Source: an uncultured Gammaproteobacteria bacterium
GTDB taxonomy: Bacteria; Patescibacteriota; Microgenomatia; Levybacterales; GWA1-39-11
NCBI GenBank assembly: GCA_964589835.1
Contig: CAZPUU010000002.1
Location: 1-43,575, forward strand
Length of the DNA stretch: 43,575 nt
Direction of reading: 5' to 3'
A program made the position numbers and the translations under genes. This document shows, one piece after another, positions 3,347 through 34,201 of this stretch. How positions within the stretch are numbered: the first letter of the stretch is position 1; each line of letters opens with the position of its first letter. The notes under the pieces are model-generated. The model was not told the DNA's origin. It did no database searches and was given only the letters and a program-made list of their open reading frames with translations.

Positions 3347-3360
3347 ACACCGTTTGTCAA

Positions 3361-8086: not shown

Positions 8087-8088
8087 AT

Positions 8089-8364
8089 CTAAATTCTCAC
8101 CAAAAGGTGTCTTAATATATCGTCGTTAATTCGGGCTTTGTTCTCAAGTTCTGCAGAAACTGCTACACTTTCGAATTCAAACAATACATAATCACCTTTT
8201 TTCTCACCTTTTATCGGGTAAGCAAACTTTTTCTCGCCAAGATCAACTATTTTATCGTCAGTTATTTTACCACTCCAGCTTTTGATACTTCCCAATAATT
8301 TTTCCTTCGCCTCTTTCTTGAGTTCGCTTTTTAAGATGAGAACGAGCCTATATTTTCTTGACAT
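8089..8364 (-). CDS. rpsF: 30S ribosomal protein S6
   Basis: ORF 8089..8382. The start at ATG 8362-8364 (MSRKYRLVLILK...) matches the usual S6 N-terminus better. Conserved position upstream of ssb-rpsR. Confidence 0.85.
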   Translation of the reverse strand: MSRKYRLVLILKSELKKEAKEKLLGSIKSWSGKITDDKIVDLGEKKFAYPIKGEKKGDYVLFEFESVAVSAELENKARINDDILRHLLVRI

Positions 8365-8496
8365 AATTTGCCTATTATACATGAAGTGAGGCTATAAATT
8401 CAAGCAGAATATACAGCACTTTTTACATCCTGCCGAATACGAAAAAAAGAAGCCGTTATTTTTCCCGCCCCGCCATAACATCGCCTTGCAATTGAT

Positions 8497-8525
8497 TTGA
8501 CATTGTTATTGCCTGGTACTACACT
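8497..8525 (+). promoter_or_regulatory. sigma70-like promoter candidate for the htrA-like gene
   Basis: TTGACA (8497-8502), 17-nt spacer, TACACT (8520-8525), about 65 nt upstream of the ATG at 8590. Confidence 0.35.
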
Positions 8526-8589
8526 AAAAACTGCTAAAAAAAGTGAGCTTTTCAGTAAATTTTAAGTTTTTATTGCTGTAATTTTCACC

Positions 8590-18409: not shown

Positions 18410-18728
18410 GTTGTTCACCTCCTTTCAGATTTTCGTTGACAATCGCTCTTTTGATGTGTGTTCGTGCCAGGACTAATCCTTCCATAACCTCTTCATCTTC
18501 ATATTCCTTTACTGCTTTGATGTACGCCTCAAGCATTTCGGGATATCCATAACAGAGCTTGTTTAATGTTGTTATAAAATTCTCCGGATCTTCATTTTTA
18601 AGCACAGGAAGAAAAGCTTGCGCAATCCTCCTGGCTCGAAGGCTTGATATTTGACCTCTTCTTATCCTGGTTATGATCTGGAACAATAATTCCCGCTCAA
18701 AGTTATTTTGTAATTTTTTGTATGTCAT
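18399..18728 (-). CDS. hypothetical protein
   Basis: 109-aa ORF. Its stop overlaps the start of the downstream acidic protein by 11 nt, suggesting an operon. Confidence 0.55.
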   Translation of the reverse strand: MTYKKLQNNFERELLFQIITRIRRGQISSLRARRIAQAFLPVLKNEDPENFITTLNKLCYGYPEMLEAYIKAVKEYEDEEVMEGLVLARTHIKRAIVNENLKGGEQHGI

Positions 18729-18749
18729 AATTGTTAAATTTTGTAATTC

Positions 18750-18992
18750 TTAACCCGTTAATTCTGTTATCTTTTCTTTTGTTTCTTTACCTTTCTCCTC
18801 GGCTTCTGCCCGTCTTTCCGCGGCAGCTTGAGCTTCGATTAACTCCAACTCAAGGCTTCGTGTATCTTCCTCTGCTTCCTGCGCGTCAAGGCTTATCTCC
18901 ATAACCTCCTGCTTTGCCTCGACAAGCATTTTTTTCAGACTCCCCTCTTCAAAGGTGTTTGCTTTCATAATTTCTGCGTTTGCGTGTCTCAT
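18750..18992 (-). CDS. small coiled-coil hypothetical protein
   Basis: 80 aa, Glu/Ala/Lys-rich heptad-like sequence. First gene of a three-gene minus-strand set. Confidence 0.45.
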   Translation of the reverse strand: MRHANAEIMKANTFEEGSLKKMLVEAKQEVMEISLDAQEAEEDTRSLELELIEAQAAAERRAEAEEKGKETKEKITELTG

Positions 18993-20249: not shown

Positions 20250-20251
20250 AC

Positions 20252-20542
20252 TTACTTTCCTCCTAGCCCTCCGAGTAACTCTTGCAGTCCTGCGCCCATT
20301 TGTTGCATTTTTTGCGCGCTCTTTTTTTGTGCTTTATCGACGGCTTCGTTGACAGCATCCCGTGCGTCCTTCATTTCTTCACCGTTGATTTCGACAGATT
20401 TTACTTTCATATCCCCCGTCATAACAATTCTTACCCGTCCCTTTTCAGCTTCAACTTCAATTTGCGATAGTTCGTCTTGGATTCTTTTTGCCTGATCACG
20501 AAGTTTTTTTATTTCTCCTGCTTGTTTGAATGGATTTATCAT
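20252..20542 (-). CDS. ybaB: YbaB/EbfC-family nucleoid-associated protein
   Basis: 96 aa. Typical YbaB layout (KKLRDQAKRIQDEL...VRIVMTGDMKVKSVEI...). Confidence 0.85.
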   Translation of the reverse strand: MINPFKQAGEIKKLRDQAKRIQDELSQIEVEAEKGRVRIVMTGDMKVKSVEINGEEMKDARDAVNEAVDKAQKKSAQKMQQMGAGLQELLGGLGGK

Positions 20543-20646
20543 GTTTTAAAACACCCCCCTTCGCCAAGGCTCCGGTGGGCATGGCCTCCAAATAACCTTA
20601 ATGGCTAGGATTTATATTACAAAATGCGAATCAATAACACAAGGCG

Positions 20647-21624
20647 TTAGAAAAGATGGGTTTCGGAAAGTTTGGCTCCATCTGCAGGGTTATTTGGAAT
20701 AATTTTTATAACGAAAGGCAACTGCTTGAGCTTCTCCACCAGCTGATTTTCGTCTTTCCCCTCGACAATGAGATGAATATTTTGTCCGGTATTAAGCGTA
20801 AAATATACTTGCAACCCTTCACTCCTCCATTTTTTGACCAGTCTCATAATTCTTAAAGTCTCAGGAAGTAAATATATAAGTGACGGGTGAGAAGTAAGCA
20901 TTATTGAATGAAGCTCTAACGCCTCGGATTCCAGTAATTCACCAAATGCTTCAAAGTCCTTTTTTAAAAGAAGATTTCTACACTCTTCTATTTTCTGCGG
21001 CATATGTTTCCTTCTCACCTCAAAGAACTGGCTTTCCTGCGCTCCCTTTTGACCTTCGCTCGTTGGAACTTCCTTCACCTCGGTACTGACAACGGCAACA
21101 ACATCGACTATGTTCCAATATTTCTTCGGGTATAGTGAATAAGCGTACGACTCTTCACTGCTATTCCCATCCCTCCATTCGACAAATCCATCCGGAATTG
21201 ACCTGCAAGCCGATCCCGATCCCTGACGGGCCAAAATACTGAGCTCTTTTTCAGAAAGATCTAATCCCGCAGCTTTCGTACCGGCCATTGTAAGCGCCGC
21301 GTATCCTGAAGCGGAAGATGAAAGACCCGTTCCTGAGGGAAAATTATTCTTCGTTACGATTTTGACGGGCGTTTTTTTATTTGCGAGTTTTCTAATCCTA
21401 TCTATATGCGCGATTGCGCGGTTGCCGTGAATTTCTTCCTCCGTTCCATTATAGGTAAGGCTATCTTTTTTAAATTTGGAGGAAAACTCAACGGTTGTTG
21501 TCGTCAGAAGATTTGATAAATTCATCGAGATACTGCCATTTTCAGGCAATCTGAGGATTTCATCTTTCCTTCCCCAATATTTGATAAATGCTATGTTTGA
21601 TGGTGCGATACTTGTTGCTTTCAT
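20647..21624 (-). CDS. mvaD: diphosphomevalonate (or phosphomevalonate) decarboxylase
   Basis: 325 aa. APSNIAFIKYWGRKD and GLSSSASGYAAL, the GHMP-type MVD signatures. Last gene of the operon. Confidence 0.85.
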   Translation of the reverse strand: MKATSIAPSNIAFIKYWGRKDEILRLPENGSISMNLSNLLTTTTVEFSSKFKKDSLTYNGTEEEIHGNRAIAHIDRIRKLANKKTPVKIVTKNNFPSGTGLSSSASGYAALTMAGTKAAGLDLSEKELSILARQGSGSACRSIPDGFVEWRDGNSSEESYAYSLYPKKYWNIVDVVAVVSTEVKEVPTSEGQKGAQESQFFEVRRKHMPQKIEECRNLLLKKDFEAFGELLESEALELHSIMLTSHPSLIYLLPETLRIMRLVKKWRSEGLQVYFTLNTGQNIHLIVEGKDENQLVEKLKQLPFVIKIIPNNPADGAKLSETHLF

Positions 21625-22121
21625 AATATTCCCAGTTCCTCAAAACTCCGTATTGCGGTCGGTGCAATCTGAGATCTTAAAGACTCAACATCCTGAGGAG
21701 CTACATATTCTACTGTTTCTACTTCACTTGCGTTAAGCTTCAGCTCTCCTTCAAATTTTCCCGTAAAAAGCGCGACATACTCGGATTCTAGTGTGTTTTT
21801 AAGTAAAAATTTAGTTTTAAATTCCAGAGGAACGTCGAGCCCAATTTCTTCAAACAGCTCCCTTTTTGCGGTTGATTCGTATGACTCTCCTTTATCTACA
21901 TGCCCTGACGCACTCACTGTAAAGTATCCGGGGTAAAGATCTTTGGTCATACTCCTTTTTTGCATCAAAACTTTACCCTCGTTGTCAAAAAGTACGATCT
22001 GAACACTTCTGTGAATAAGACTCTTGTCTGAATGGCATTCTCCCCTCGTCCTATAATCCACGACATTATCATTTTCATCGACAACAATAAATAGCTCGTT
22101 TTGGTTATCTGTTGTTTTCAT
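21621..22121 (-). CDS. IDI type-1-like Nudix protein (catalytic Cys position is Ser)
   Basis: 166 aa. Gapless alignment by eye to E. coli Idi: PGYFTVSASGHVDKGES versus [17 protein letters not shown]. ExE retained (LESEYVALF). 4-nt ATGA overlaps on both sides. Confidence 0.7.
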   Translation of the reverse strand: MKTTDNQNELFIVVDENDNVVDYRTRGECHSDKSLIHRSVQIVLFDNEGKVLMQKRSMTKDLYPGYFTVSASGHVDKGESYESTAKRELFEEIGLDVPLEFKTKFLLKNTLESEYVALFTGKFEGELKLNASEVETVEYVAPQDVESLRSQIAPTAIRSFEELGIL

Positions 22122-23092
22122 TTTTCAATTCTAACACCCTGCGCGTTTGTTTTGACTTTTAAAATCTCTCCTCCGGCATTTTCGATGGCTTTTTTGATGT
22201 GTGACATTTTGTCATCCGGACCAAGCGCAATCATACAATCCCCTCCTCCGGCACCTGAAAGTTTCGCACCATACGCTCCATTTGTTATCGCACTTGATAT
22301 TATGTCATCCAATTTTGAAATACTTACTCCAAGCTCTGAAAGCAATTTTTGATTGTCATTCATAAGCCTTCCCACCTGATCCCATTTTTCCAAAACGACA
22401 TACTGTTTTGCCTTATCAACAATGGATGCTACTTCATCATATATTTGCTCAAGTCTTTTTTTATTTCCGGAAAATTTTTCTGCAACTTTGTCGATAAGAA
22501 TTACCGTATCTGCTTTTATTCCGCTGTATCCAATTATAAGCGGGATGTTTTTGATCTTTAGAGATTCTATTGTCTTTCCGCCGGTTACAAAATAAAGCGT
22601 CCCGCCAAAAACAGCTGACGCCACATCAAACCCGGATCCTTTTTTTTGGACATCCAATACCGTTTTATATGCACTATCAAAAATTTGTCTTTGCGAAAGC
22701 TTTAATGCAAATAACTCCGACAATGCTTTTACGGTACAAACAGTCGAGGCGGATGATGAGCCAAATCCGAATTTTGAGGAGAATTCCGAACGGGTTGAAA
22801 CAGCAAGCCCATTTACTTCAATCTTGTATTCGGCGAGCACATTTTTGACAGCAATTTCAATAAATTGAGCCCCTTTTGGGATTTCACCAATACCCAAACT
22901 CTTTATTGGTTTTGAATAATTTGAAACTTCCACTTCCGGAGCATTGAGAACAAACATTCCGGAATTGTTTTTCTCAACCGTTACAAACATCCTCTGATCA
23001 ACCGAGGTCACTATACACGGGCGTCCATACACAACAGCGTGCTCCCCAAAAAGCATCAATTTCCCCGGCGCACTAACGGTAATTTTATTCAT
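22118..23092 (-). CDS. mvaK2: GHMP kinase, probable phosphomevalonate kinase
   Basis: 324 aa. APGKLMLFGEHAVVYG, GFGSSSAST, GSGFDVASAVFGG and LSGAGGGDCMIAL. The MVK-specific HGxPSGxD motif is absent. Confidence 0.55.
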   Translation of the reverse strand: MNKITVSAPGKLMLFGEHAVVYGRPCIVTSVDQRMFVTVEKNNSGMFVLNAPEVEVSNYSKPIKSLGIGEIPKGAQFIEIAVKNVLAEYKIEVNGLAVSTRSEFSSKFGFGSSSASTVCTVKALSELFALKLSQRQIFDSAYKTVLDVQKKGSGFDVASAVFGGTLYFVTGGKTIESLKIKNIPLIIGYSGIKADTVILIDKVAEKFSGNKKRLEQIYDEVASIVDKAKQYVVLEKWDQVGRLMNDNQKLLSELGVSISKLDDIISSAITNGAYGAKLSGAGGGDCMIALGPDDKMSHIKKAIENAGGEILKVKTNAQGVRIEK

Positions 23093-24032
23093 AATTTTCT
23101 ATTCTTACCCCATCTTTGACTATTTTCAGAGCAAAATTTTTCCATGTGTTTTTCTTACAATAGCCAAGCACTTCTTTGTCTTTTGTGAACCCTGTCACAA
23201 TTACTCCCGAACCTGTTTTTATCCCTCCCCCACCCGATATTTTTGCAGCAAATCCCTGTTTCTTTAATTTTGCAATAATTCCCCGGGCATTCTTCCCTAC
23301 AACTCCGGTTTTTTCAAGATTTACTTGAGCCTCGGAAAGACCTTTTTCAAACTCCTTCACGTCTCCCGAAATAAGACTGTCTGCCATTTTTTTCGTAAGA
23401 TTCTCTTGATCTTTAACAAATTGCAGAATCAACTTAGGATTTTTTTTCATTTTTTCGCCGACAAAGGCAACCATTTCTTTTGTTGATTCACTCGGTTTTC
23501 CCGTGTCAATAACGATGAATTTTGAAGGAATTTTAGATGACATAGCAATTTTTTTTACCAGCTTTATTTGTTCCGTTTCTTTCCGGAAATAAATAACCCC
23601 ACCATAAACACAGGCAGCTAGATCTCCCCCTGAAGGATTCCCATGAAAAACTTTTTCCCCTTCGTACGCGGCAGAAAAAATCTCATCAATCCCAACGGGT
23701 AATTTATGCAGCTCAAAGAGCGCTCCTGCCATGGCGGCAGAAATGGCCGCTGACGATCCCATTCCACGCCCGACCAAAAGATCTCCGGCAACTTCGATCA
23801 ACAACCGTTCAACCGGAATTCCATAATTTTGCTTTAGGAATTTTTGGATCGCAAATAACGCTTGATACAGCTTTTTCTCCCGTACCGGAAATGATCTTCC
23901 CGAAGTCCGTGTTAGCTTAACCGAAATTCGCTTGCTGATGGCGATCAAAATTGCAGGCGCACCATATACAGATGAGTGCTCTCCTATCAAATGGATTTTC
24001 CCGGGTGCAGATGCTACAGCGACATTTCTCAC
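23085..24032 (-). CDS. mvk: mevalonate kinase
   Basis: 315 aa. APGKIHLIGEHSSVYG, GMGSSAAISAA and the MVK-type EGEKVFHGNPSGGD motif. The C-terminal glycine-rich motif is divergent (KISGGGGIKTGSG). Confidence 0.65.
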   Translation of the reverse strand: MRNVAVASAPGKIHLIGEHSSVYGAPAILIAISKRISVKLTRTSGRSFPVREKKLYQALFAIQKFLKQNYGIPVERLLIEVAGDLLVGRGMGSSAAISAAMAGALFELHKLPVGIDEIFSAAYEGEKVFHGNPSGGDLAACVYGGVIYFRKETEQIKLVKKIAMSSKIPSKFIVIDTGKPSESTKEMVAFVGEKMKKNPKLILQFVKDQENLTKKMADSLISGDVKEFEKGLSEAQVNLEKTGVVGKNARGIIAKLKKQGFAAKISGGGGIKTGSGVIVTGFTKDKEVLGYCKKNTWKNFALKIVKDGVRIENYE

Positions 24033-24337
24033 AGTGGTCTGAATTTTATCACATATGGAATAACGTCCTTCTTGCCCTCCGTACGTCCTCGCCTGATTAC
24101 AGCGACAACCTTTTGCCCGATTTTCAATTCACTCTCATGATAATCGGTAATTTGCGCTATTAATTTTATCCCGCCTGAGAGTTTAATGATCGCAACCGGA
24201 TACGGTGCGTATTGTACAAATCCCATTGGCGCGACTCTCACCAATGTAATGCTCTCGATAACTCCTTTCTTTCCAATAAGAGAAGAAATTTTTTCTTTCC
24301 TTCTCCAAATTTTGACGGGCGTATTGGTAATGCTCAT
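24029..24337 (-). CDS. DUF35-like OB-fold protein (thiolase/HMGS scaffold family), lacking the Zn ribbon
   Basis: 102 aa, positioned between the thiolase and MVK genes with ATGA overlaps. OB-fold-like C-terminal sequence. Contains no cysteine at all. Confidence 0.55.
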   Translation of the reverse strand: MSITNTPVKIWRRKEKISSLIGKKGVIESITLVRVAPMGFVQYAPYPVAIIKLSGGIKLIAQITDYHESELKIGQKVVAVIRRGRTEGKKDVIPYVIKFRPL

Positions 24338-25482
24338 ATTTTAAGAATGTGGACAGCGGCAACAGCACCGGACCCGCCTACGTTGTGGGTGAGTCCTACT
24401 TTTGCTTCTTTTACTTGACGTTTTCCGGCAACTCCTTCAAGTTGCATGGCAATTTCAATAATTTGCTTGATACCCGTGGCCCCCACAGGATGTCCGCACG
24501 CCTTCAGCCCGCCTGAGGGGTTGACAACCAGTCCACTGCTTCCCAATGTCATAAGCCCATCTTTAATATCCAGAACCCCCCTGCCTTTTTTTGAAAAAGA
24601 CAAATCCTCAAGTGCAATTGCTTCTGCTATCGAAAAACAATCGTGCACTTCCGCAACGTCGATGTCCGTATGCTTGAGTTTTGATTCCTGATATGCTTTT
24701 TTTGAAGCCACAACCGCCGACTTGAGAGTAGTCAAATCCTCTCTCCCACAAAGACCTATCGAGTCGGTACCGATTTGACTTGCAACTATTTCAACACCTT
24801 TTGATTTTGCGAGCAGTCTTTGGTCGGACGTAATAATTACTGCCGACGCTCCGTCGGTTATGGGAGAACAATCAAGAAGCTTTAATGGATCTGCGATTTT
24901 TGCACTTTTCATGACAGTTTCAACCGTTATGATATTTCGGAATTGTGCCTTCGGGTTAAAACTTCCGTGAAAGTGATTTTTTACCGGAATTGAAGCCAGA
25001 TCCCCTTCAGAAATACCATATTTTTGCATGTATGAGGATGCGATCAAAGCGTACAGTCCGGCGAACGTTAATCCCGCTACTCTTTCCTCGTCACTTCCGG
25101 CAGCCATTAGCGCTGCAACAACCTCGTCCTGTGGATGATCGGTCATTTTTTCAATTCCCAAAACCATAACCGTTTTGTAGACACCTGCTTTAACGCTCTG
25201 CATTGCGTTGTGCAAAGCAACACTCCCGGACGCGCACGCTGCCTCGACTCGCACCGAAGGGACAAATGAACCCAACTCCTCGGCATAAAAACTCGCCAAA
25301 TTAGCTTGATTGCCCAAAATTCCCGAAAGCATGTTTCCGACATATAACGCCTCTATTTTGCCTGCCTCAAGCCCGGCATGTTTGAGAGATGTCGTCATGA
25401 CCTCCTGAGCCAGATCCCGCGGAGAACGGTCCCATAACTCTCCGAATTCACTTGTAGAATATCCGATGATTCCTATTTTCAT
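24334..25482 (-). CDS. acetyl-CoA acetyltransferase (archaeal/SCP-x-type thiolase)
   Basis: Start at ATG 25480-25482 (MKIGIIGY...), which forms an ATGA overlap with the HMGS stop. Nucleophile context VEAACASGS; C-terminal GHPVGATG and HNVGGSG. Confidence 0.85.
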   Translation of the reverse strand: MKIGIIGYSTSEFGELWDRSPRDLAQEVMTTSLKHAGLEAGKIEALYVGNMLSGILGNQANLASFYAEELGSFVPSVRVEAACASGSVALHNAMQSVKAGVYKTVMVLGIEKMTDHPQDEVVAALMAAGSDEERVAGLTFAGLYALIASSYMQKYGISEGDLASIPVKNHFHGSFNPKAQFRNIITVETVMKSAKIADPLKLLDCSPITDGASAVIITSDQRLLAKSKGVEIVASQIGTDSIGLCGREDLTTLKSAVVASKKAYQESKLKHTDIDVAEVHDCFSIAEAIALEDLSFSKKGRGVLDIKDGLMTLGSSGLVVNPSGGLKACGHPVGATGIKQIIEIAMQLEGVAGKRQVKEAKVGLTHNVGGSGAVAAVHILKI

Positions 25483-26522
25483 AAAAGATGTAAAAATGTT
25501 TTTTTCAAAAAATCGATGTACGAGATGTACTCGACGTTCTGACAATACGAAGCAAAAGTTACCGCCTTTTTTTGTTTGGGTAAAATATTTTTTGTTGTTT
25601 CAAATATAAATGCGTCAGATCCTGCCCCCGATCCGTAGGAAACAAAAAATATTTTCTGCCCGGGTTTTGCAATATCAAGAACTGCCGCAAGACCCGTGAG
25701 CGTCGAGGCAGAATACGGATTTCCTATCTGATCAACAATTAAAGACGGGGCGAGTTGCTCCGGTGTAAATCCGAGGCTTACTGCAACAGACCGGGGGAAT
25801 TTGCCGTTGGGCATATGAAAAACACAGTAATCAAAATCCTGAGGTTTGCTTTTTGTTTTTTCAAAGAGTCTTTTTGCCGCACCTATGACGTGAGTAAAAT
25901 ATGCAGGTTCTCCGGTAAATCTTCCCGCGTGTGACGGAAATTTCATCCCTTCCCTTCTCCAGAAATCAGGAGTATCGGAAGAGAAAGAAACGCTATCAAC
26001 AACTTTAGCGATTACTTCCTCAGGTTTTCTACCTAAAATATACGCTGCTGCTGCAGATGCGGCGGTGTACTCGAGCGGGTCATGAGGTTTTGCTTGCGCG
26101 GTATCACTCCCGATAACAAGTCCGTAATCAATAGCTTTACTGTCAACATGTGATGCGGTCAGTTGAAGGGCTGCTGTTGCTGCCTTGCAGGCAAATTCAA
26201 AATCCGCAGCGGAAAAGAGTCTGCCGACACCTAAAAAGTCAGCGATAATTGTTGAGGTTGGATTGACGACGTACGGATGGCTCTCAGACCCTACATATAC
26301 TGCCCCGAGCTTTGATGCAGAAATTCCCCCGACAGCAAGCGCATGCTTGGCTGCTTCAATTCCCATTGTGACCGCGTCTTCATCCTCGCCGGGAACCGCT
26401 TTTTGTGTTACTTTCAGGCCTCCGATTATTTCTCTCGCATCTTTTTTCCAGACGGATGCGATATCCTCTGTCCGGATTCTGTATTTTGGAACATACACAC
26501 CGTATCCGACAATTCCACTCAT
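25479..26522 (-). CDS. HMG-CoA synthase, archaeal type
   Basis: 347 aa. GIVGYGVYVPKYRI N-terminus, Cys context FEFACKAAT, HMPNGKF. The short length is typical of archaeal-type HMGS. Confidence 0.85.
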   Translation of the reverse strand: MSGIVGYGVYVPKYRIRTEDIASVWKKDAREIIGGLKVTQKAVPGEDEDAVTMGIEAAKHALAVGGISASKLGAVYVGSESHPYVVNPTSTIIADFLGVGRLFSAADFEFACKAATAALQLTASHVDSKAIDYGLVIGSDTAQAKPHDPLEYTAASAAAAYILGRKPEEVIAKVVDSVSFSSDTPDFWRREGMKFPSHAGRFTGEPAYFTHVIGAAKRLFEKTKSKPQDFDYCVFHMPNGKFPRSVAVSLGFTPEQLAPSLIVDQIGNPYSASTLTGLAAVLDIAKPGQKIFFVSYGSGAGSDAFIFETTKNILPKQKKAVTFASYCQNVEYISYIDFLKKTFLHLL

Positions 26523-27643
26523 TTTTCCTTTCTCCTTCCGAGGCTTTTATGAGCTTTTCCTAAAGTTCCGGTCGCAATTGCAGACAACAGTGATATTTCA
26601 CCGGCAACAACCGCTCCTCCTATAATTTCTGCCAATTCGACAGATTTTGAGGTTTTCTTAATTCCCATGATCTCAAGTGCATGCCTCTGGGTCGGCAGTA
26701 CCGTTCCTCCACCGACTACTCCCACAAGAAGAGCAGGAATATTTACACTGACATACAAACTCTTACCCTTCACCATACACGTTGTTATTCCCATGCTTCC
26801 TTCAACAACATGTGAAGGATCCTGACCGGTTGCTATAAAAATCGCTGCGATAATATTCGCAAAATGGCTGTTGTATCCCAAAGAACCGCTCGCGTAGGAA
26901 CCTATCATGCATTTTGCGAACCACACATCATATACACGTTGAGCAGTCACATGCAGTACATCTCTTAACACTTTCTCAGGAATTTCACACTCGGCAAGTA
27001 CTTCAAATCCTCGGCCGTCAATGGTATTTAGATATGCGGGTTTTTTGTCTATATCGAAATTCCCCGCAACGGCTAGGCACTTAGCTTCGGTCTTTTTCTC
27101 GATGAGTGCAACAATCGCCTCGGTAGCCAAAGTTACCATGTTCATCCCCATAGCATCCTTTGTATCAAATGAAAATCTGACGAACGACATATTTCCTATG
27201 ACTTTTACCTTGGCCCCCAGATACGAAATATGTGAAGAAACACTTGAGGAAGCGTCTGAAATTGATTTACTATTCCCCTCCACCCATTTTTTGAAAGCTA
27301 TTCCTTCTGCTACACCACCCGTCTCAAAAACCGGACCCCGCGTCTGACCGTGCATGACAACAACACTTTTCACCCCTCCACTCAACAAAATTGCCTTGCA
27401 ACCACGGTTGACCGAAGCGACAAGTGCACCTTCTGTTGTGGAAAGAGGAATGTATCTTTCTTTTTTGTTTACTGAAATTGGTCCGGCAACTCCAACCGGC
27501 ACCCTGACTGCGCCTATGAGATTTTCACAATGAACTCTGTCATCATTTTCGAGGTTCTCGTCGGAAAGATCCGACAACTTGATGCGTAATTCTGTTTCGA
27601 GAAATTCGCGGCGTTTTGCCGATGTGAAGTTGCGCAAACTCAT
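26519..27643 (-). CDS. hmgA: HMG-CoA reductase (class I-like motifs)
   Basis: 374 aa. TTEGALVASVNRGCKA, DAMGMNMV and VGVVGGGTVL. First gene of the operon. Confidence 0.9.
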   Translation of the reverse strand: MSLRNFTSAKRREFLETELRIKLSDLSDENLENDDRVHCENLIGAVRVPVGVAGPISVNKKERYIPLSTTEGALVASVNRGCKAILLSGGVKSVVVMHGQTRGPVFETGGVAEGIAFKKWVEGNSKSISDASSSVSSHISYLGAKVKVIGNMSFVRFSFDTKDAMGMNMVTLATEAIVALIEKKTEAKCLAVAGNFDIDKKPAYLNTIDGRGFEVLAECEIPEKVLRDVLHVTAQRVYDVWFAKCMIGSYASGSLGYNSHFANIIAAIFIATGQDPSHVVEGSMGITTCMVKGKSLYVSVNIPALLVGVVGGGTVLPTQRHALEIMGIKKTSKSVELAEIIGGAVVAGEISLLSAIATGTLGKAHKSLGRRKEK

Positions 27644-27800
27644 GGAAATAAAAAAATAAAGGGAACTACTCCCTTTTGCACCCGTTAGTATATACTCTCA
27701 TGCCCGTTATTTGCAACAAAGCGCATGTAGCCTCGTACAGTATGGAATAAACAACTTCACAACTTTCTGGAATTATACGAATGCTTAGTCTACAATACTA

Positions 27801-28355
27801 ATGATGAATTTATCCGTCGATTATTACAAGCAAAAAATTATGATCGCCCGCTGCAATAGGCAGGGGGAAATATTGGGTGAGATAGAACGTTGGGAGGCAC
27901 ACGAAAAAGGGATCTTGCACCGGGCATTTACTGTCGCGATCATGTACCGGGGAGACATTGTCTTGCAGCACCGCAAACATCCCGTCTTTGATGGGGTTAT
28001 TGATGTGACCTCATCCTCACATCAAATATACAAAAATGAGGTTCTTCAAGACACAATTGAGGCTACCTATAATTGCCTTGAACGCGAGTGGGGAATTGTT
28101 AAAAAAAATCTTTCAAAACAGCCTGAAGATATGGGGTGGGTATATTACAAGGCCAAAGACAAGTTTAGCAAGTATACCGAGCACGAAATATGCAACGTTG
28201 TTATCTGCGAAGTAAAAGCGCTTCCGTCGCCGAATTTTGAAGTTTCGTATGGGTATTCCGTCGCCTCACCAAAAGAAATCAAAAAGACCTCGTCGCGCCT
28301 TTATCAAAACCTTGCCCCTTGGGTAAAGGCTATGATACGAGAAAAAATGATTTAA
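27801..28355 (+). CDS. second IDI type-1-like Nudix protein (Cys position is Ser)
   Basis: 184 aa. [14 protein letters not shown] (LHxAFS hallmark), [12 protein letters not shown] aligned to [20 protein letters not shown] aligned to ENEVCPVF. Divergent from the mevalonate operon. Confidence 0.6.
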   Translation: [184 protein letters not shown]

Positions 28356-28397: not shown

Positions 28398-28425
28398 TTG
28401 AATTTAAACGACTCAATGGTATAAT
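28398..28425 (+). promoter_or_regulatory. sigma70-like promoter of the GC-rich islet
   Basis: TTGAAT (28398-28403), 16-nt spacer, TATAAT (28420-28425). A second TATAAT lies at 28431-28436. Confidence 0.45.
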
Positions 28426-28568
28426 CACTCTATAATTTTGGTCTTGAGAGCATACTGCAAGCTCTTAAAGAGCAAAATGCACATTAAAAAGTTGCGGATT
28501 TTGTGAGTGGCATTTTGTACAGGACAACGTGTATGAAATGCCACTCATACGTGGCGAGAGGACACCAA

Positions 28569-28868
28569 ATGTCAGTCGTCATCGACACACAAGGATTCGA
28601 AAACGTACTGAAGTGCAGCCCTTGCGGCAAGCACTTCGGTTACCATGACCATGAGGTCGAGCACTGGCATCCGGAAGGCGAAACGTTCCACAGCAATTGT
28701 GGGATTCTCGTCAACTGCCCTTCGTGCGGAACCCGAAACTTCATCCCGCCGCTTGAGCGGCACCGGTATCTCGGCGCGACGTCGCCGGCAAGACTGGTGA
28801 ACCGTCCCAACCAGACCAGGACTCCCGTCCCGGCCGCAGTCGACCGTTACGGAGAACACCAAACTTGA
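28569..28868 (+). CDS. small zinc-ribbon-like protein
   Basis: The ATG at 28569 is preceded by GAGAGGA 6 nt upstream. CSPC...CPSC cysteine pairs. GC-rich codon usage. Its stop TGA overlaps the next ATG (TGATG). Confidence 0.45.
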   Translation: MSVVIDTQGFENVLKCSPCGKHFGYHDHEVEHWHPEGETFHSNCGILVNCPSCGTRNFIPPLERHRYLGATSPARLVNRPNQTRTPVPAAVDRYGEHQT

Positions 28869-29053
28869 TGGGACCCATACTCAAAGGCAATCTCGAATCC
28901 ATCCTACGACAACGCAGGGCGATCCGCCACTGGTTGTCCCAACCAAACCCTGAGCTCGGCGGCCAAACGCCGGACTCATACCTTGAAAAAGGAAAGGAGG
29001 ACGAAGTCAACCGGGTTCTTCTAAAAACCCTGGGCCACTGGGTGCACTATTGA
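28868..29053 (+). CDS. DUF2384-like (Xre/MbcA/ParS antitoxin toxin-binding domain) small protein
   Basis: 61 aa. RHWLSQPNPELGGQTPDSYLEKGKEDEVNRVLLKTLGH fits the W-L-x-x-P-N-x-x-L-G-G-x-x-P ... V-x-x-x-L pattern of DUF2384 (recognised by eye). Confidence 0.5.
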   Translation: MGPILKGNLESILRQRRAIRHWLSQPNPELGGQTPDSYLEKGKEDEVNRVLLKTLGHWVHY

Positions 29054-29150
29054 CCCTGGTCGATACCCCGGCACGCCCGGGGTCATCCCGTCGCATCTTC
29101 CGCTTTGGTCACCAAGGCGTAAGATCAACCACAAAGGAGCTGGAAACAAG

Positions 29151-29432
29151 ATGTCCTTCCTGAAAAGGAACAAACCTGCTGAAGCAACGGCTGCAGCACC
29201 CGCCACCAAACCCGGTATCGAACCGGCAACCGAATGGCTGGATAAGCCGGATGGAGCAACCGACGAAGAATTACGTGACGGCCGGACCATGCCGTTCTAC
29301 TCGCCCAACCCTGCGCACAAATGCGGCGGCTACATGCGCAACGCCAACGGCGTGGTTGTACTGTGTTGGTGCCGCTTCGGCGGCGACAACAACACTTCCT
29401 ACGCCAAACAGGCAGCCGCTGACTCAGCCTGA
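29151..29432 (+). CDS. hypothetical small protein
   Basis: 93 aa. AAGGAG lies 11 nt upstream of the ATG. Ala/Pro-rich N-terminus and a Cys-containing C-terminus. In GC-rich DNA, so a spurious ORF is possible. Confidence 0.35.
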   Translation: MSFLKRNKPAEATAAAPATKPGIEPATEWLDKPDGATDEELRDGRTMPFYSPNPAHKCGGYMRNANGVVVLCWCRFGGDNNTSYAKQAAADSA

Positions 29433-29456
29433 CATCCGCAACGCAATTTGGGTCTT

Positions 29457-29475
29457 CCGGCGCTTACCGCGCCGG
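29457..29475 (+). terminator. GC hairpin at the end of the GC-rich islet
   Basis: CCGGCGC-TTACC-GCGCCGG, located 25 nt after the stop of the 29151 ORF. No clear U-tract follows. Confidence 0.3.
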
Positions 29476-29529
29476 GGGACCCATCCACAAATATTCAAAG
29501 AAATGCGCAACTTTCCGGGGAATTTAAAA

Positions 29530-30933
29530 TTATTTCGTCTCAACCGTAACGGTTACTTCAACTTTTTTTCCGCATACAACCTCTGCCACTTTCACTAAGT
29601 CTTCAAATACCTTGTCCGATTTCAATCTCTCGGCATGTATCGGGAATGGGGTACTTATCGTCAGAATACTACCCTCCAGTAAAGCATTTTTTGCAGACCG
29701 CAAAAGAGCTGCTCCCGGTTTGTTGATTTTATTTAACTCGTTGAACAAATCAGAAAGCAAATTAGTGGACTTTGGAGAGATAACATTCGCTTTCGCAACC
29801 GGCACGTCATTTCTAGGTGTTTCAACTACACTGCTTTGGGTCTGTTGGCTTCCAATTTCCGGTTTTTTAGCATCCAGAATACAAAATTTTACAGTCATAA
29901 GTTCTAGAGGCAATGTCGGAATAACGGCAACTTTCAACTCGACGTATGCTTCATTCGACATCTCAAGCAAATTCTTAATATCTTCAATAGATAACCCTTT
30001 TATATCTTTTTCCCGGCTTTCTATCCCGTTTCTTAGCATAAGAAGACCCCGCAAATGGTCAACTATTCTTCCGATTACAACTTTAAAATCCGACCCGTTC
30101 ATGTGAAGCGTTGTAATTACTTCCAATGCTTTTTTTGCATCCCGCCGTGCGTACGCGCCCAAAAGATCGTAAATCTCCTCATACAAACCTTTTGTTTTGA
30201 AAGTATCGTCAAAAAGGGAGACCGTTATCTTTTTGCCTTTTGATGAGAGCACCAATTCCTCCAAAAGTTTTGCAGCATCCCGGAAAGCCCCGTCAGAAAC
30301 TTCGGCAACTTTCAAAAGCACTTCCTTTTCGATATCCAATTTTTCACCCAAAATAATTCTTTCAAGACTATTGGCTATCTGCGCATGGGTTGGTTTTTCA
30401 AACAGGATCTGAAAAGTACGCGACACAACCGTTGCGGGAAGCTTCCACAATTCTGTAGTTGCAAGAATAAATATTACATGACTTGGCGGCTCCTCAAGCG
30501 TCTTGAGTAATGCATTGAAAGCGCCTGTTGAGAGCATGTGCACTTCATCGATGATATAGACTTTGTATTTCAGAGTAGTAGACGCAAATTTCACCCGCTC
30601 GCGAAGTGTTCTCATCTCCTCTACTCCCCCGTTTGACGCTGCATCGATTTCCAGAACATCGATATTTGAACCGTTCGTAATTGAGGTGCATGCATCGCAT
30701 ACATTACACGGCTCTATGGCACTTGATCCCTTGTCCTTTGAAGTATGTCCGGTGCAATTTATCGCCTTTGCCAAAATCCTTGCACTTGATGTTTTGCCAA
30801 GACCCTTACTCCCCGTAAATAAAAATGCATGCGGCAGCTCTTTTGAAGATAAAATAGCGGTGAGCTTTTCCCTCACCGATGGAAGATCAAGATCTGAGAT
30901 TGTTTGAGGCCGGTATTTTCTGTAGTACACCAT
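29530..30933 (-). CDS. dnaX: DNA polymerase III subunit gamma/tau
   Basis: 467 aa. Walker A GSKGLGKTS, Zn module CNVCDACTS, IIDEVHMLS, and SRT-type sensor TVVSRTF. Confidence 0.9.
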   Translation of the reverse strand: MVYYRKYRPQTISDLDLPSVREKLTAILSSKELPHAFLFTGSKGLGKTSSARILAKAINCTGHTSKDKGSSAIEPCNVCDACTSITNGSNIDVLEIDAASNGGVEEMRTLRERVKFASTTLKYKVYIIDEVHMLSTGAFNALLKTLEEPPSHVIFILATTELWKLPATVVSRTFQILFEKPTHAQIANSLERIILGEKLDIEKEVLLKVAEVSDGAFRDAAKLLEELVLSSKGKKITVSLFDDTFKTKGLYEEIYDLLGAYARRDAKKALEVITTLHMNGSDFKVVIGRIVDHLRGLLMLRNGIESREKDIKGLSIEDIKNLLEMSNEAYVELKVAVIPTLPLELMTVKFCILDAKKPEIGSQQTQSSVVETPRNDVPVAKANVISPKSTNLLSDLFNELNKINKPGAALLRSAKNALLEGSILTISTPFPIHAERLKSDKVFEDLVKVAEVVCGKKVEVTVTVETK

Positions 30934-31030
30934 AGTTTTGAGCGTTTAGATGATTAGAGTTTTGCGTTTAGTTTATATATCATAGCTACGTAATAATCAA
31001 ACTTAACCCTACACGATATCTAACTAAACC

Positions 31031-31417
31031 CTACCTATGGTGGAATCCAAGAAGATGCATAAGGCTATGTTCTACCAATTCATTTACCCTGTCGTCGATA
31101 AGCATATTGTCACGCGCGCACTCCTCCACAACTTTGGGATATGAAAGTACTATGTCCCCCAAATATAATTTATCGGGATGCTGAACGACTCCTTCGCCTT
31201 CGGTTTGTGAGAAAGACAAGACATTAGTAGATTTATCGATATCTCTATATTTTTTATTCAAAGACCTCATTTTTCTGTTGCCGATAACAGCCACGCTAAC
31301 CTCAACAGGACTGGTAATATTTTGCTTCAAAAGCACTTTTATTATTGTTTCCTTTATCTTTTTCCGGTTGATCTTGTACCGGCTCTCCACGTAAATAGGA
31401 ATCGAAATAGCATTCAT
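31031..31417 (-). CDS. ybeY: rRNA maturation endoribonuclease YbeY
   Basis: 128 aa. C-terminal HSLMHLLGFHH, the H-x3-H-x5-H zinc motif. Confidence 0.85.
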   Translation of the reverse strand: MNAISIPIYVESRYKINRKKIKETIIKVLLKQNITSPVEVSVAVIGNRKMRSLNKKYRDIDKSTNVLSFSQTEGEGVVQHPDKLYLGDIVLSYPKVVEECARDNMLIDDRVNELVEHSLMHLLGFHHR

Positions 31418-31507
31418 AGCATTTAGAAATTTCTAGTTAACCTAGAAGCAGCTTTAATGTTGTCAAAATGAAACACGGGAATTAATTAGAAATTAAGAAC
31501 TAAACAA

Positions 31508-31693
31508 TTAATAATTATTGTGCTTGTTCATCTTCCGGGCCAACTCTTTTCTGAACTTTTTCGCCAAAGAAGGCTTTAGATGAAATTCCCTTTTTTTCAT
31601 TTCATGAATAATTCCCTCGCTCATAACCTTGCGGGAAAATTTTCTTATCATTGCGTCCGGACTATCACCGGGTTGTTTTTTTACAAAAACCAT
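31508..31693 (-). CDS. rpsU: 30S ribosomal protein S21
   Basis: 61 aa, basic. IRKFSRKVMSEGIIHEMKKREFHLKPS is a typical S21 core. Confidence 0.9.
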   Translation of the reverse strand: MVFVKKQPGDSPDAMIRKFSRKVMSEGIIHEMKKREFHLKPSLAKKFRKELARKMNKHNNY

Positions 31694-31716
31694 AATTTAA
31701 AAACACCACCTTTCAA

Positions 31717-31739
31717 ATATCTTGTTTACTACAAGATAT
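31717..31739 (-). promoter_or_regulatory. perfect 9-bp inverted repeat in the rpsU upstream region
   Basis: ATATCTTGT (31717-31725), TTACT, ACAAGATAT (31731-31739), 24-46 nt upstream of the rpsU ATG. A TATAAT-containing stretch lies just beyond it on the minus strand. Confidence 0.35.
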
Positions 31740-31793
31740 GCATATTATATTACAATCGTATCTGAATTTAAACCATCACAGGCGAAATACTAA

Positions 31794-31822
31794 TTGATCT
31801 GTCAAATATCCGGGCGTATAAT
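31794..31822 (+). promoter_or_regulatory. sigma70-like promoter of the GC-rich non-coding unit
   Basis: TTGATC (31794-31799), exactly 17-nt spacer, consensus TATAAT (31817-31822). Confidence 0.5.
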
Positions 31823-31828
31823 CTCCGT

Positions 31829-32590
31829 AACTGAAGTCCAAAGCTGCCAGCTTTGGGCGCAGGAGTTCTTTGACTTTATCGCATGTTCCATCCGGAAACC
31901 ACCGGATGTTGCAGTTGAATCCTATCAGCAGGAGGGTACGCGTATGTCGCTCACCGGTCTTTCCGGTAACAAGGGTCCTCCGGGATCCGCATCCTAACCG
32001 CGAAATGCGGTACGCAAAGGCGAAGATCAGATCTTCGCAGAAAGGACCGAAGCGTCGACGGATGGGGCTGACGGCCCCAAAACCGAGAGCTCATCCCCCG
32101 TGGAAAATCTACATGGACTTGCCGTCCGTACCTGCCAGGTACGGCTCTGCCGTCCATTTCTATCGCCAACGGCGAGCAAGTCGCGGGGACTCGACTCCTT
32201 TTGCCCGCTCTGTTGGCGGCAATGTCGATGGATCGGGTGCTTGCACCCGGTTCTCTCCCTGACCGGTGGGGGTTCTCCGGGACCCCCTTCCGGTTTTTCC
32301 AACTGCAAGCCGGGGCAGATTCCCGGCAACATCCTCAATTTTGGAGTATGGGAACATGTCCAAGATACGCTACGTGACGTCGGCCTCCGCCGTCACCTGA
32401 CGTTTCGCCGGGGGTCGCCGCATACCTTAGCGGCACCGCTCCCGGAAGGGAGCAACAAAAAGACACGGGGCAAAAGTCCTGATCCGTCGGTCACCCGAAT
32501 GCGCGGTGATACTCCGGTTCTCGGAACCGGCACCAACGGTGCCACCCCGTCTCGTCCCCGGCCGTCTCCACAAGAGGCGGCCGGGGGTTT
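31829..32590 (+). ncRNA. candidate large structured non-coding RNA of unknown class (about 760 nt)
   Basis: A 959-nt intergenic gap lies between rpsU and the HIT gene. Its core is about 60% GC (38 of 60 nt at 32221-32280) against AT-rich surroundings. It contains only overlapping Arg/Pro/Gly-rich ORFs in several frames on both strands. It holds at least 10 strong hairpins and is bracketed by a consensus promoter and a 13-bp GC hairpin. Confidence 0.45.
32556..32590 (+). terminator. terminator-like hairpin closing the GC-rich unit
   Basis: CCCCGGCCGTCTC-CACAA-GAGGCGGCCGGGG (13 bp including one G-U) followed by GTTTGAT. The U-tract is short. Confidence 0.4.
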
Positions 32591-32652
32591 GATAAATCCC
32601 CAGCAAAAATTACACCGTTATTTCTCTATAAATTGATTTCTACCAAAAGCTT

Positions 32653-32985
32653 TTACTGTATCGGTACATGAAGACCCGTTGGGCCAATGAGGTGAAAATG
32701 AAGATGATTGATAACTTGTCCCCCGCCGCCATTAACGATAATTTTATACCCTTTTCCGACAAGTTCGGTCTCCTCAATTATTTTCTGAATTCCTTTTCTT
32801 ACTGAAGCAAGGATTTCATCATCGTACAATTTTTCAAAGCTATCGACATGCTCCTTAGGTATAAATAAAACATGCACTTTTGCAACAGGGTGTATGTCAT
32901 CAAAAGCCAGTACATTCGCATCCTTGAAGCGGAATTCTTTCGGGATATCCCCCTTTACTATTTCGCAAAATATACAATCCGTCAT
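32653..32985 (-). CDS. HIT-family nucleotide hydrolase/transferase
   Basis: 110 aa. CIFCEI N-terminus and histidine triad HLHFHLIG. Confidence 0.9.
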   Translation of the reverse strand: MTDCIFCEIVKGDIPKEFRFKDANVLAFDDIHPVAKVHVLFIPKEHVDSFEKLYDDEILASVRKGIQKIIEETELVGKGYKIIVNGGGGQVINHLHFHLIGPTGLHVPIQ

Positions 32986-33076
32986 TGAATTTATTGTACC
33001 TCAAGAACGATCTATTTTAAATGCCTCACGGGGCATGACTTGTGATTCAAAAAATTGTTTGTTAGAATCGCTCATC

Positions 33077-34201
33077 ATGGTAAATCCACATGAATCACAA
33101 GAATTCACTGGCCAAATAGGCTATCCCATCGAACATGGTGCGAATGAACGGCACGAGAATGTCGGTATTATTCTTCCCGGTCAGGATGTAAGAAAAATCG
33201 GAATGTTCGACAAAATTATGCAATCCCCCGCAGGAGCCGAGGTTCTCGTTCGTGGGAATGATTATTTAAAAGAAAACTACGGATTTGACTTGTTGGAAAT
33301 GTCCAAAGAAATCCCCGATGAAGACGATGAGTCAAAACAAAAAAGAGCGGATACACTTCGCGAAACCCGGTTTACCCAGCCTGCGGTTTACCTTTTCTCC
33401 ATGGCTCTGCACAATATTAAAAGACACCACCTCAACGAACCCGGATACAGAACAACCCCTGAGCATCTTACAGGAATCAGTATGGGAATGGGAACCGCTG
33501 CCGTTCTGGCAGGCTACATGGATTTTGAGACAGGACTGATGTTCCATGCCGAGCGTGGACGCATCATGCAGGAGGAAAGTGATCCGACACCGACTTCCAT
33601 GGCAACACTTATCGGCGATGAGCAAAAGGTGAAAGCGTATCTTGCATTACCCGAAAATGAATCACTCGACCTTTGTATTGTTAATGCCGACAACCTTTTC
33701 GTTGTAGGCGGACCAGATAACCCCCCAGATCCCACCTCTCCGATGCAGCGGGTCAGACGCGAAGCAAAAGATCATGGATTCAAAAGAGTGATAGATGTTG
33801 ATACCGACAGGGCAATGCACGGGCGATACGTAAGACCCGCCAGGGAAGCCTTTGACCGACTTGTCGATGGTATAGAGTTCAAGGACGCGCACTCAGTTGT
33901 TATAAGCAGCATTACAGGTGAACCAATTTATAATGCGCACGACATGAAAGAAGAGCTCAAGCAAGGATTCGACCACACGATCGACAACAGACTTCCTCTG
34001 GAGTATATGAAAGAGCGAAAAATACATATTGTTTCTGAAGTGGGAAGTGAAAAAGGATTCTTTGCAAAAGCTCTTGGAAGTCACAAAGTACAAGCCGCTG
34101 CAGCAATTGGTGCGAGTCTTGTAGCCGCAGGACTTGTAACAGGATATGAAATTATGACTCACCATCATCCTTCTCACCCCGAAAACGGGAAAAAAGAGTA
34201 A
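33077..34201 (+). CDS. divergent FabD-like (malonyl-CoA:ACP transacylase superfamily) acyltransferase with C-terminal TM anchor
   Basis: The track ORF begins inside the HIT gene; plausible starts are ATG 33035 or 33077. Collinear with FabD by eye: ILPGQDVRKIGM / TRFTQPAVYLFS / GISMGMGTAAVLAG (GHSLGE position) / RGRIMQEE / AMHGRYVRPA. Has a C-terminal hydrophobic helix and a His-rich tail. Confidence 0.55.
   Translation: MVNPHESQEFTGQIGYPIEHGANERHENVGIILPGQDVRKIGMFDKIMQSPAGAEVLVRGNDYLKENYGFDLLEMSKEIPDEDDESKQKRADTLRETRFTQPAVYLFSMALHNIKRHHLNEPGYRTTPEHLTGISMGMGTAAVLAGYMDFETGLMFHAERGRIMQEESDPTPTSMATLIGDEQKVKAYLALPENESLDLCIVNADNLFVVGGPDNPPDPTSPMQRVRREAKDHGFKRVIDVDTDRAMHGRYVRPAREAFDRLVDGIEFKDAHSVVISSITGEPIYNAHDMKEELKQGFDHTIDNRLPLEYMKERKIHIVSEVGSEKGFFAKALGSHKVQAAAAIGASLVAAGLVTGYEIMTHHHPSHPENGKKE

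Follow-up and report, generated by a model that had tools for sequence, protein, structure and literature searches.

A candidate hairpin-array RNA gene in a variable slot beside rpsU of an uncultured bacterial lineage

The described bacterial systems closest to the element considered here include: (i) dual-function small RNAs (sRNAs) such as RNAIII, SR1 and SgrS, (ii) large RNAs such as OLE, GOLLD, ROOL, the HEARO/IscB omega RNA and raiA, (iii) the mgtL and mgtP attenuators of Salmonella and (iv) the type I toxin-antitoxin systems hok/sok and AapA/IsoA. RNAIII of Staphylococcus aureus, which is 514 nucleotides (nt) in length, has 14 hairpins and a short translated open reading frame (ORF). The element, hereafter the unit, occupies positions 31794-32590 (+) of a 43,575-nt stretch of DNA (the window; contig CAZPUU010000002.1 of NCBI GenBank assembly GCA_964589835.1) from an uncultured bacterium labelled Gammaproteobacteria (GTDB lineage Patescibacteriota; Microgenomatia; Levybacterales; GWA1-39-11). 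With moderate confidence, the unit is taken to be a true RNA gene on which selection acts through the RNA, and the best explanation of its features is a predicted stable RNA of ~770 nt that would act as RNA and not via a conventional protein.

The unit shares with OLE, GOLLD, ROOL, the omega RNA and raiA a long GC-rich, ORF-free intergenic stretch in an AT-rich genome, a length in the range of 0.6-0.8 kilobases (kb) and a function that was not known at discovery. While these RNAs have conserved nucleotides, multi-stem junctions, pseudoknots and cross-phylum alignability, the unit is a simple string of hairpins from one lineage and one locus and matches none of their covariance models in Rfam 15. 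The nearest functional analogue is the RNAIII type. Like RNAIII, SR1 and SgrS, the unit would yield a long RNA that has a promoter and a terminator of its own (here predicted from sequence signals) and, as in RNAIII, it has consecutive independent stem-loops, an embedded short ORF and G-poor, C-containing loops (G accounts for 15% of the loop positions, and UCCC occurs 71 times vs 38 expected). By contrast, the unit has no sequence or structure homology to these RNAs (Rfam negative), its peptides are not conserved, its context is not one of quorum sensing, and many of its loops are rigid UNCG/GNRA caps instead of accessible C-rich loops, with no target-pairing seeds identified. The unit is rated a putative orphan long bacterial RNA. 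A sequence-only reading of the same DNA had proposed a large structured non-coding RNA of unknown class; of this, the promoter-to-terminator unit, the lack of conventional protein coding and the unknown class (no Rfam family) stand, and related units keep hairpins through compensatory changes, while the implied kinship with the ornate OLE/GOLLD/ROOL type does not, as the hairpins are simple, local and subject to fast turnover.

The unit lies in a gap of 959 nt (31694-32652) between rpsU (31508-31693, - strand) and a HIT gene (32653-32985, - strand), an extent confirmed on the sequence. In 200-nt windows, the GC content is 0.53-0.64 across 31800-32600 vs 0.31-0.39 on both flanks, and is ~0.41 for the whole window. 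The statement that most gaps of this genome are under 150 nt holds roughly, but longer gaps also occur elsewhere, of 300-560 nt and free of ORFs that reach 110 amino acids (aa), at 8087-8589, 18419-18979 and 20250-20646, in which small genes are possible; unlike the rpsU-HIT gap, these are not GC-rich. A sigma-70-type promoter, TTGATC-17-TATAAT (31794-31822, +), heads the unit and is recovered by promoter scan with 10/12 matches. Back to back with it stands a promoter-like site for rpsU, TTTAAA-17-TATAAT (31744-31772, - strand), which marks the conserved left border of a variable slot: the ~85 nt nearest rpsU align in all relatives, and beyond ~31780 no alignment is found. The unit is closed by a 13-base-pair (bp) GC hairpin, CCCCGGCCGTCTC / CACAA / GAGGCGGCCGGGG (32556-32586), followed by GTTT. 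This hairpin, termed T2 (32556-32590, +), was read directly from the sequence and is the likely 3' end of the RNA; it is missed by terminator scan because the U-tract (GUUUG) is too short. The direct repeat AATTGAT, noted earlier as a hint of insertion, is present in both copies (31792-31798, where it overlaps the -35 box of the unit promoter, and 32631-32637), but its reading as a target-site duplication was rejected, as relatives with an empty slot align only over the rpsU-proximal ~85 nt and are without a single-copy site.

The searches for known RNAs, proteins and repeats are negative. Rfam 15 gives 0 matches at gathering scores across the whole window, only sub-threshold noise at E<=10 over 28500-33200 and no match at E<=1 for the units of seven relatives; ARAGORN finds no transfer RNA or transfer-messenger RNA (tmRNA). 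The Rfam check proposed by the sequence-only reading has thus been run without a family being matched, and the failure to match RNase P, tmRNA, signal recognition particle (SRP) RNA or a group II intron by eye is borne out. A universal RNA (RNase P, tmRNA, SRP or 6S) was rejected on two grounds: no model matches, and the unit is absent in the relatives L092-L094, L104, L108 and L289, an absence in close relatives that is incompatible with an essential RNA. Group I and II introns (RF00028, RF00029) were rejected as well, given no Rfam match even at E<=10, an intergenic position and no ORF with a Pfam match. The ORFs of the unit overlap one another in several frames on both strands, as noted earlier, and have no Pfam match above noise; specifically, none of the nine ORFs of at least 50 aa in the gap has a Pfam match, and their concatenated translations match nothing at E<=1e-3 among 5.8 billion proteins. 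No gene is called in the gap of the JGI contig of the same strain (L001). A frameshifted or decayed protein gene was rejected on these empty protein and Pfam searches and on codon-position GC periodicity, which is weak in the unit and clear in a coding GC-rich island at 28.5-29.5 kb. Paralogy with this island was also rejected, as no similarity is found. Distant-mode blastn of the unit finds no match in 50,697 phage or 72,556 plasmid records, and a full-text literature search found no description of such elements.

Homologues were sought, as proposed earlier, and related units are found at the same locus, with compensatory changes in the hairpins H2 and T2. An identical HIT protein occurs on 23 public contigs. 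Of those fetched, eight (L001-L008) carry the entire gap at 100% identity, as do the truncated L009 and L010 for the portion that they retain; this identity points to one widespread strain and thus offers no variation to analyse. A comparison of dnaX with the genomes of GTDB species gives best relatives that are only 33-44% identical and useless for synteny. HIT homologues of 56-86% identity were also found, and contigs for twelve were fetched (designated by L-numbers, with A/B or u1/u2 for tandem units and WIN for the window unit). The gene order ychF..HIT-slot-rpsU-ybeY-dnaX is kept in related species with HIT identities of 75-86%, and DNA identity in the flanking genes is only 72-78%; thus, neutral DNA should be unalignable. 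About half of the relatives carry in the slot one or two units composed of a promoter, a hairpin chain and a terminator in the same orientation. The GC-rich stretches, which are without called genes, fill the slot in L096, L097, L098, L099-L102, L091, L103, L107 and L290, each with a sigma-70-like promoter on the rpsU side, a GC-rich hairpin chain and a strong hairpin by HIT. Promoters of this orientation head nine units (L099, L096 and L098 with one each, and L091, L107 and L290 with two each), and terminal hairpins followed by U-runs, in this orientation only, are found in L098, L091, L107 and L103. In the other relatives, the slot is 73-154 nt and AT-rich (L092-L094, at 144-154 nt, L104, L108 and L289) or holds an unrelated protein gene (453 aa in L287 and 252 aa in L288), while L107 and L290 have both hairpin units and a protein gene.

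The slot behaves like a hotspot of gene gain and loss. A protein of 413-476 aa without a Pfam family, encoded on the HIT/rpsU strand, is found in the slot of L287, L107, L290 and a further relative contig (P0011), where it stands alone or beside hairpin-array units; the 252-aa gene of L288 is instead AT-rich and on the opposite strand. Short tandem repeats are placed between the HIT stop codon, which they directly follow, and the unit terminator in L290 (5334-5430, (ATTAGCC)x13), L107 (780-960, 14-nt periodic TAGGTTTCAGGTTC-like), L103 (460-560, ATTCATAACTCATG-like) and L091 (6334-6370), and none occurs in the window. L100 has at ~3270-3400 a 131-nt poly-G/poly-C run at the exact apex of the long 18-bp hairpin of the L099-type unit, unlike L099, L101 and L102; this run probably reflects an artefact, of assembly or of sequencing, at a palindrome, although it could be a real extension of the palindrome.

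The units are 260-980 nt in length, and most of their sequence is unalignable between species, with the exception of four pieces: the 5' domain, an internal terminator-like hairpin (T1), the last ~250 nt and T2. The 5' domain has the same order in WIN, L107A and L099 (promoter, hairpin H1, YTWTTTGAC, GCATGYTY, hairpin H2, TTKCAGWGT, a U-rich linker and a Shine-Dalgarno site). Its core pattern has 1 match in the window vs 0 expected; an nhmmer profile of the domain recovers only its three training sequences. Viral contigs scanned with the 5'-domain pattern give at least 120 matches, all by chance, with none combining the hairpin and the GC-rich context. The H2 stems of these units (CATCCGG/CCGGATG, CACGCC/GGCGTG and CACCGG/CCGGTG) covary at 4/6 pairs with 0 broken. 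In T1, L099 has the identical nested design with a different inner stem and a common tail, CCGGUUUU(U)CC; the T1 tail CCGGUUUUCC is common to WIN and L099 and is kept in L097. The last ~250 nt of WIN align with L097, and the two units have in common the 3' block GATACTCCGG...GGTGCCACCCCGTC. At the position of a GGAA-capped hairpin of WIN (32439-32452), L097 has a different, fully paired hairpin (UGCCCC..GGGGCA). A GATAC box is located 60-90 nt upstream of the terminator in L103 and L091u2. Read from the alignment, T2 has four double compensatory changes in L097 and two in L098 with no broken pair, and the WIN/L097 consensus fold has compensatory changes at 11/50 pairs. The unit family is best read as lineage-restricted, confined to one locus and fast-evolving, with architecture and hairpin stability kept instead of primary sequence.

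All 12 units fold far better than dinucleotide shuffles (z -4.6 to -16.3). For the window unit, z is -7.1 in the + and -5.3 in the - orientation, with -8.6 in a separate run, and a value of -19.6 is noted for L099. Perfect hairpins of at least 7 bp occur at ~7 per kb in the unit vs ~0.6 per kb elsewhere in the window, a difference of ~10-fold. The nature of the loops gives the strongest evidence on the strand under selection. When only hairpins with loops of 4 nt and stems of 5 bp or more are counted, GNRA/UNCG caps account for 23/98 in the sense and 4/96 in the antisense orientation of the 12 units (Fisher p = 1e-4; binomial p = 1e-10 against a chance expectation of 4.7%). In the window unit, the counts are 5/12 on the + strand and 0/7 on the - strand, and in the rest of the window the caps are at 5-6% (15/322 on the + strand and 23/384 on the - strand). 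CUCCG, the signature of c(UCCG)g caps, similarly has 14 occurrences vs 2 of its complement. Because extra-stable tetraloops matter only in RNA, and on one strand, this sense-only enrichment argues for selection on the + strand RNA and against palindromes that act in DNA. The + strand reading agrees with the promoter and the terminators.

Tandem two-unit slots with a promoter for each unit are present in L091, L107 and L290, and the two modules of WIN, A and B, which are split by T1, correspond to these separate units; module B is without its own promoter in WIN and L099 and has its own in L091, L107 and L290. Tentatively, and at less confidence than the RNA gene itself, the units may form an undescribed, clade-specific class of hairpin-array RNAs of 0.3-1.0 kb with a function that would depend on generic RNA structure. 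Members of this class would be strings of stable, tetraloop-capped hairpins in which the 5' domain is conserved and an attenuator and micro-ORFs are included; they would stand beside the rpsU-ybeY operon and evolve by hairpin turnover and duplication, with only the architecture kept.

Along the unit, every hairpin listed in the sequence-only reading is located at its position. Perfect stems of at least 7 bp are at 31838-31856, 31889-31908, 32020-32038, 32126-32144 and 32514-32530, and those at 32163-32175, 32262-32294, 32374-32396, 32439-32452 and 32529-32543 were read directly from the sequence. H1 (31838-31856, +) is near the predicted 5' end of the transcript, and alignment with relatives indicates that the position of this hairpin is kept while its sequence is not. 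The conserved 5' domain (31865-31922, +), delimited by alignments, consists of CTTTGAC..GCATGTTC, H2 (31889-31908, CATCCGG/CCGGATG) and TTGCAG. It is followed by the Shine-Dalgarno sequence AGGAGG (31930-31935) and short ORF 1 (31944-31997), a putatively translated segment at 31930-31997 (+), which overlaps the c(UCCG)g-capped hairpin GGGUCC-UCCG-GGAUCC (31973-31988, +), a near-repeat of which is inside T1 (32270-32291). The central hairpin chain (32020-32144, +) includes the 19-nt palindromes at 32020-32038 and 32126-32144, two of the three perfect palindromes of this length in the unit, and a hairpin at 32063-32079. T1 (32262-32298, +) is a nested stem, with an outer ACCGG/CCGGT around an inner GGGGGU..ACCCCC followed by U5, and is called by terminator scan (32277-32293 and TTTTT). 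In module B, a Shine-Dalgarno-like GGAG (32343-32346) precedes short ORF 2 (32356-32400), the second stretch of presumed translation (32343-32400, +). Further downstream are the GNRA tetraloop hairpin CUCCC-GGAA-GGGAG (32439-32452, +), read directly, and a 3' domain (32508-32543, +) composed of a GATACT box and the hairpins 32514-32530 and 32529-32543, after which T2 closes the unit.

Several points weigh against an RNA gene under RNA-level selection. Transcription, RNA ends and RNA stability are all predictions from the DNA, and the U-tract of T2 in the window (GUUUG) is weak. About half of the relatives are without the unit or have protein genes in the slot, and hence the unit is dispensable. 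Folding energy is uninformative as a test of strand, the sense strand being more stable in 7/12 units. A MAFFT alignment of WIN and L097 scored on the local structure of WIN gives 6 compensatory pairs vs 1-5 in slid controls, a weak count that is attributed to misaligned hairpins, and the ~10 independent homologues, mostly unalignable, are too few for covariation statistics of the R-scape type. Mutation by template switching (quasipalindrome mutation) can likewise produce perfect stems and apparently compensatory changes in the absence of selection. Among the units, neither a conserved loop motif that would serve as a binding site nor a repeated one that would name a bound factor is found. The rigidity of the UNCG loops argues against C-rich loops as base-pairing seeds.

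Of the rival explanations, the one that survives best, although it is considered unlikely, is that the unit is an mRNA for one or two micro-proteins of 17 and 14 aa, in which the hairpins are stabilizing or regulatory untranslated regions. Short ORF 1 (GGAGG-8-ATG) encodes MSLTGLSGNKGPPGSAS and short ORF 2 (GGAG-9-ATG) encodes MSKIRYVTSASAVT, each behind a well-spaced Shine-Dalgarno site, and across the units 26/44 Shine-Dalgarno-like motifs on the sense strand vs 8/56 on the antisense strand are followed by a start codon at a distance of 4-10 nt, an enrichment of the sense strand only. The start and stop of short ORF 2 are aligned in the pairs WIN/L097 and L091u2/L103 with in-frame differences in length, and L091u2 and L103 have an ORF of the form M-(S/Q)-K...T-stop at the equivalent place. 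L099 has, at the place equivalent to short ORF 1, an ORF of 14-17 codons with the same NKGPP stretch, and Pro-Pro is found in the first short ORF of WIN, L099, L098, L107B and L290A (5/~8, a post-hoc count). By contrast, an all-against-all tblastn of all stop-to-stop segments among the units finds similarity no better than out-of-frame or antisense noise, and the candidate conserved peptides RYVTS and MRKKSPP/MKKTKPK were dropped on this comparison. The short ORFs vary from 2 to 26 codons across the units and have no equivalent in L091u1 and L107A. They account for <12% of the transcript, with peptides that are short and mostly hydrophilic, and leave >600 nt of tetraloop-capped hairpins unexplained. 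A peptide-based function of the unit is not supported. Translation of the short ORFs is plausible, and a purely non-coding status of the unit is not established.

The short ORFs invite two further comparisons. As in the mgtL/mgtP attenuators, a Shine-Dalgarno short ORF with consecutive prolines (…GPPG…) is located upstream of T1, and the predicted transcript continues beyond it; unlike these attenuators, the distance from the ORF to T1 is ~265 nt with many hairpins, and no protein gene is downstream. The unit resembles hok/sok and AapA/IsoA in its structured, presumably stable mRNA-like form, its very short ORF and its place in an accessory, variable locus, but its hairpin array exceeds any toxin mRNA in length by a wide margin. 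A type I toxin was rejected, as the window peptides of 14-17 aa have an 11-residue Kyte-Doolittle mean of <=0.70 (1.55 at the highest in relatives) and are hydrophilic or too short for a membrane helix. Promoter scan of 31800-32600 finds no promoter on the - strand.

Improbable, and more so than a micro-protein mRNA, is that the unit is decaying, horizontally acquired GC-rich DNA (e.g., an old gene cassette) in a recombination-prone slot and is now functionless. The hypervariability of the slot, which may be empty or hold unrelated protein genes or units together with a protein gene, is as expected for such a cassette, as is the coding GC-rich island nearby (28.4-29.5 kb), with its Xre_MbcA_ParS_C domain and a 16-nt leader in common with L107 unit A. 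Decay is difficult to reconcile, however, with the persistence of the GC content, promoter, orientation, 5' domain, T1 and T2 in relatives whose genes differ by 22-28% in DNA, as these would have been lost in a decay biased towards AT. Selection on RNA is required to account for the sense-specific enrichment in GNRA/UNCG caps, and no trace of protein similarity is left.

A role in cis appears less probable still. The unit would in that case separate the divergent rpsU promoter from the convergent HIT gene, as a transcriptional insulator or a cluster of terminators, or would be a source of antisense read-through that regulates HIT. The position between rpsU and HIT is fixed, several hairpins are terminator-like and the weak U-tract of T2 in the window would allow read-through into HIT antisense. 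The strong T2 terminators of L098, L091 and L107 would block such read-through, relatives with a 144-nt gap need no insulator, and insulation requires neither a dedicated consensus promoter nor a conserved 5' domain.

There is little room for palindromes that function in DNA, whether as binding or recombination sites or as mobile GC-rich mini-palindromes. The unit has in common with yeast mitochondrial GC clusters, repetitive extragenic palindromes (REPs) and bacterial interspersed mosaic elements, and the Rickettsia palindromic elements the occurrence of perfect GC-rich palindromes in AT-rich intergenic DNA, and the three 19-nt palindromes, the perfect stems and the internal repeats of ~100 nt in L091 could be read in this way. 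Unlike these repeats, the hairpins of the unit are all different, stand in a promoter-terminator unit and have strand-specific loops. No copies of the unit or of its hairpins are found elsewhere in the 43.5-kb window, and dispersed palindromic repeats (REP, miniature inverted-repeat transposable elements and GC clusters) were rejected for this reason and for want of a target-site duplication. The strand asymmetry of the tetraloops is not predicted by DNA palindromes, and G-U pairs occur in the stems of T2 and the UCCG hairpin 31973-31988. The slimmest chance is given to a highly divergent known RNA (RNase P, tmRNA, SRP, 6S, group I/II intron, OLE, GOLLD, ROOL or omega RNA) missed by Rfam, for which a deep-branching lineage in which models could lose sensitivity (best dnaX identity of 35-44% vs GTDB species representatives) and a 14-nt local match to archaeal SRP on the GGAA hairpin can be cited, against the noise-level or empty results of Rfam and ARAGORN for the window and seven relatives, unit lengths of 260-980 nt with mutually unalignable sequence, unlike the universal RNAs, and the absence of the unit from close relatives.

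If the unit is an RNA gene, as favoured here, its mode of action may be outlined as follows, although the mechanism as a whole is doubtful. The transcript would have its own promoter, a 5' domain and ~15 independent stable hairpins, many GNRA/UNCG-capped, with T1 between the modules and T2 at its close. Ribosomes would load on the two short ORFs behind their Shine-Dalgarno sites, and this translation may shield the transcript from Rho and tune read-through of T1, such that module B (32299-32590) would be made conditionally. The finished, exonuclease-resistant hairpin array would then act in trans as a scaffold or sink for a hairpin- or double-stranded RNA (dsRNA)-binding factor or, alternatively, as a dual-function RNA of the RNAIII type. 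As only the architecture is kept, a function that reads generic structure instead of a specific fold is suggested (e.g., an RNase or a dsRNA-binding factor may be titrated, or regulation may be linked to the ribosome). A CsrA sponge of the CsrB/RsmZ type was rejected, with GGA in only 7/190 predicted hairpin loops and ANGGA at 32 occurrences vs 26 expected.

Other features of the window include the second GC-rich island (28398-29480, 56-61% GC), which is located just downstream of dnaX and is protein-coding. It has a promoter (28398-28425), a CxxC-rich, zinc-ribbon-like ORF that ends at 28868, an overlapping ORF of 62 aa (28865-29053) with an Xre_MbcA_ParS_C antitoxin domain (28.2 bits vs a cut-off of 24.5) and an ORF of 93 aa (29151-29432); the P0011 contig has genes of 62 and 106 aa at this place. 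The leader of the island at 28432-28447 (TATAATTTTGGTCTTG, followed by a hairpin) is identical over 16 nt to L107 2503-2518 (- strand), the start of L107 unit A, and the GC-rich islands may share a type of promoter and leader. An 18-nt inverted repeat with 89% complementarity and an 8-nt spacer (28504-28547) in the leader overlaps the first codon (GTG) of the longest ORF; a more likely true start for this ORF is the ATG at ~28569, where a GAGAGG Shine-Dalgarno sequence is present. A mevalonate-pathway cluster at ~20650-28355 includes thiolase, HMG-CoA synthase and a DUF35/OB-fold protein, a trio of archaeal style. The cluster further has HMG-CoA reductase (26519-27643) and GHMP kinases, as well as an ORF of 184 aa (27801-28355) for which no Pfam family is recorded. 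Such a cluster is unusual for a bacterium with no dnaX relative above 44% among GTDB species representatives.

If real, the unit would contribute a further RNA family, from an uncultured bacterial lineage about which little is known. It would also exemplify an unusual evolution of a long bacterial RNA, in which the sequence, the length and the number of hairpins are free to change while the architecture and the stability of the hairpins persist. RNAs of this kind escape discovery pipelines based on covariance models and alignment. The fixed place beside rpsU and ybeY is a lead on function; both genes are tied to the 3' end of 16S rRNA. The short ORFs would make the unit a candidate for the coupling of translation to RNA synthesis, in organisms with almost no known RNA biology.

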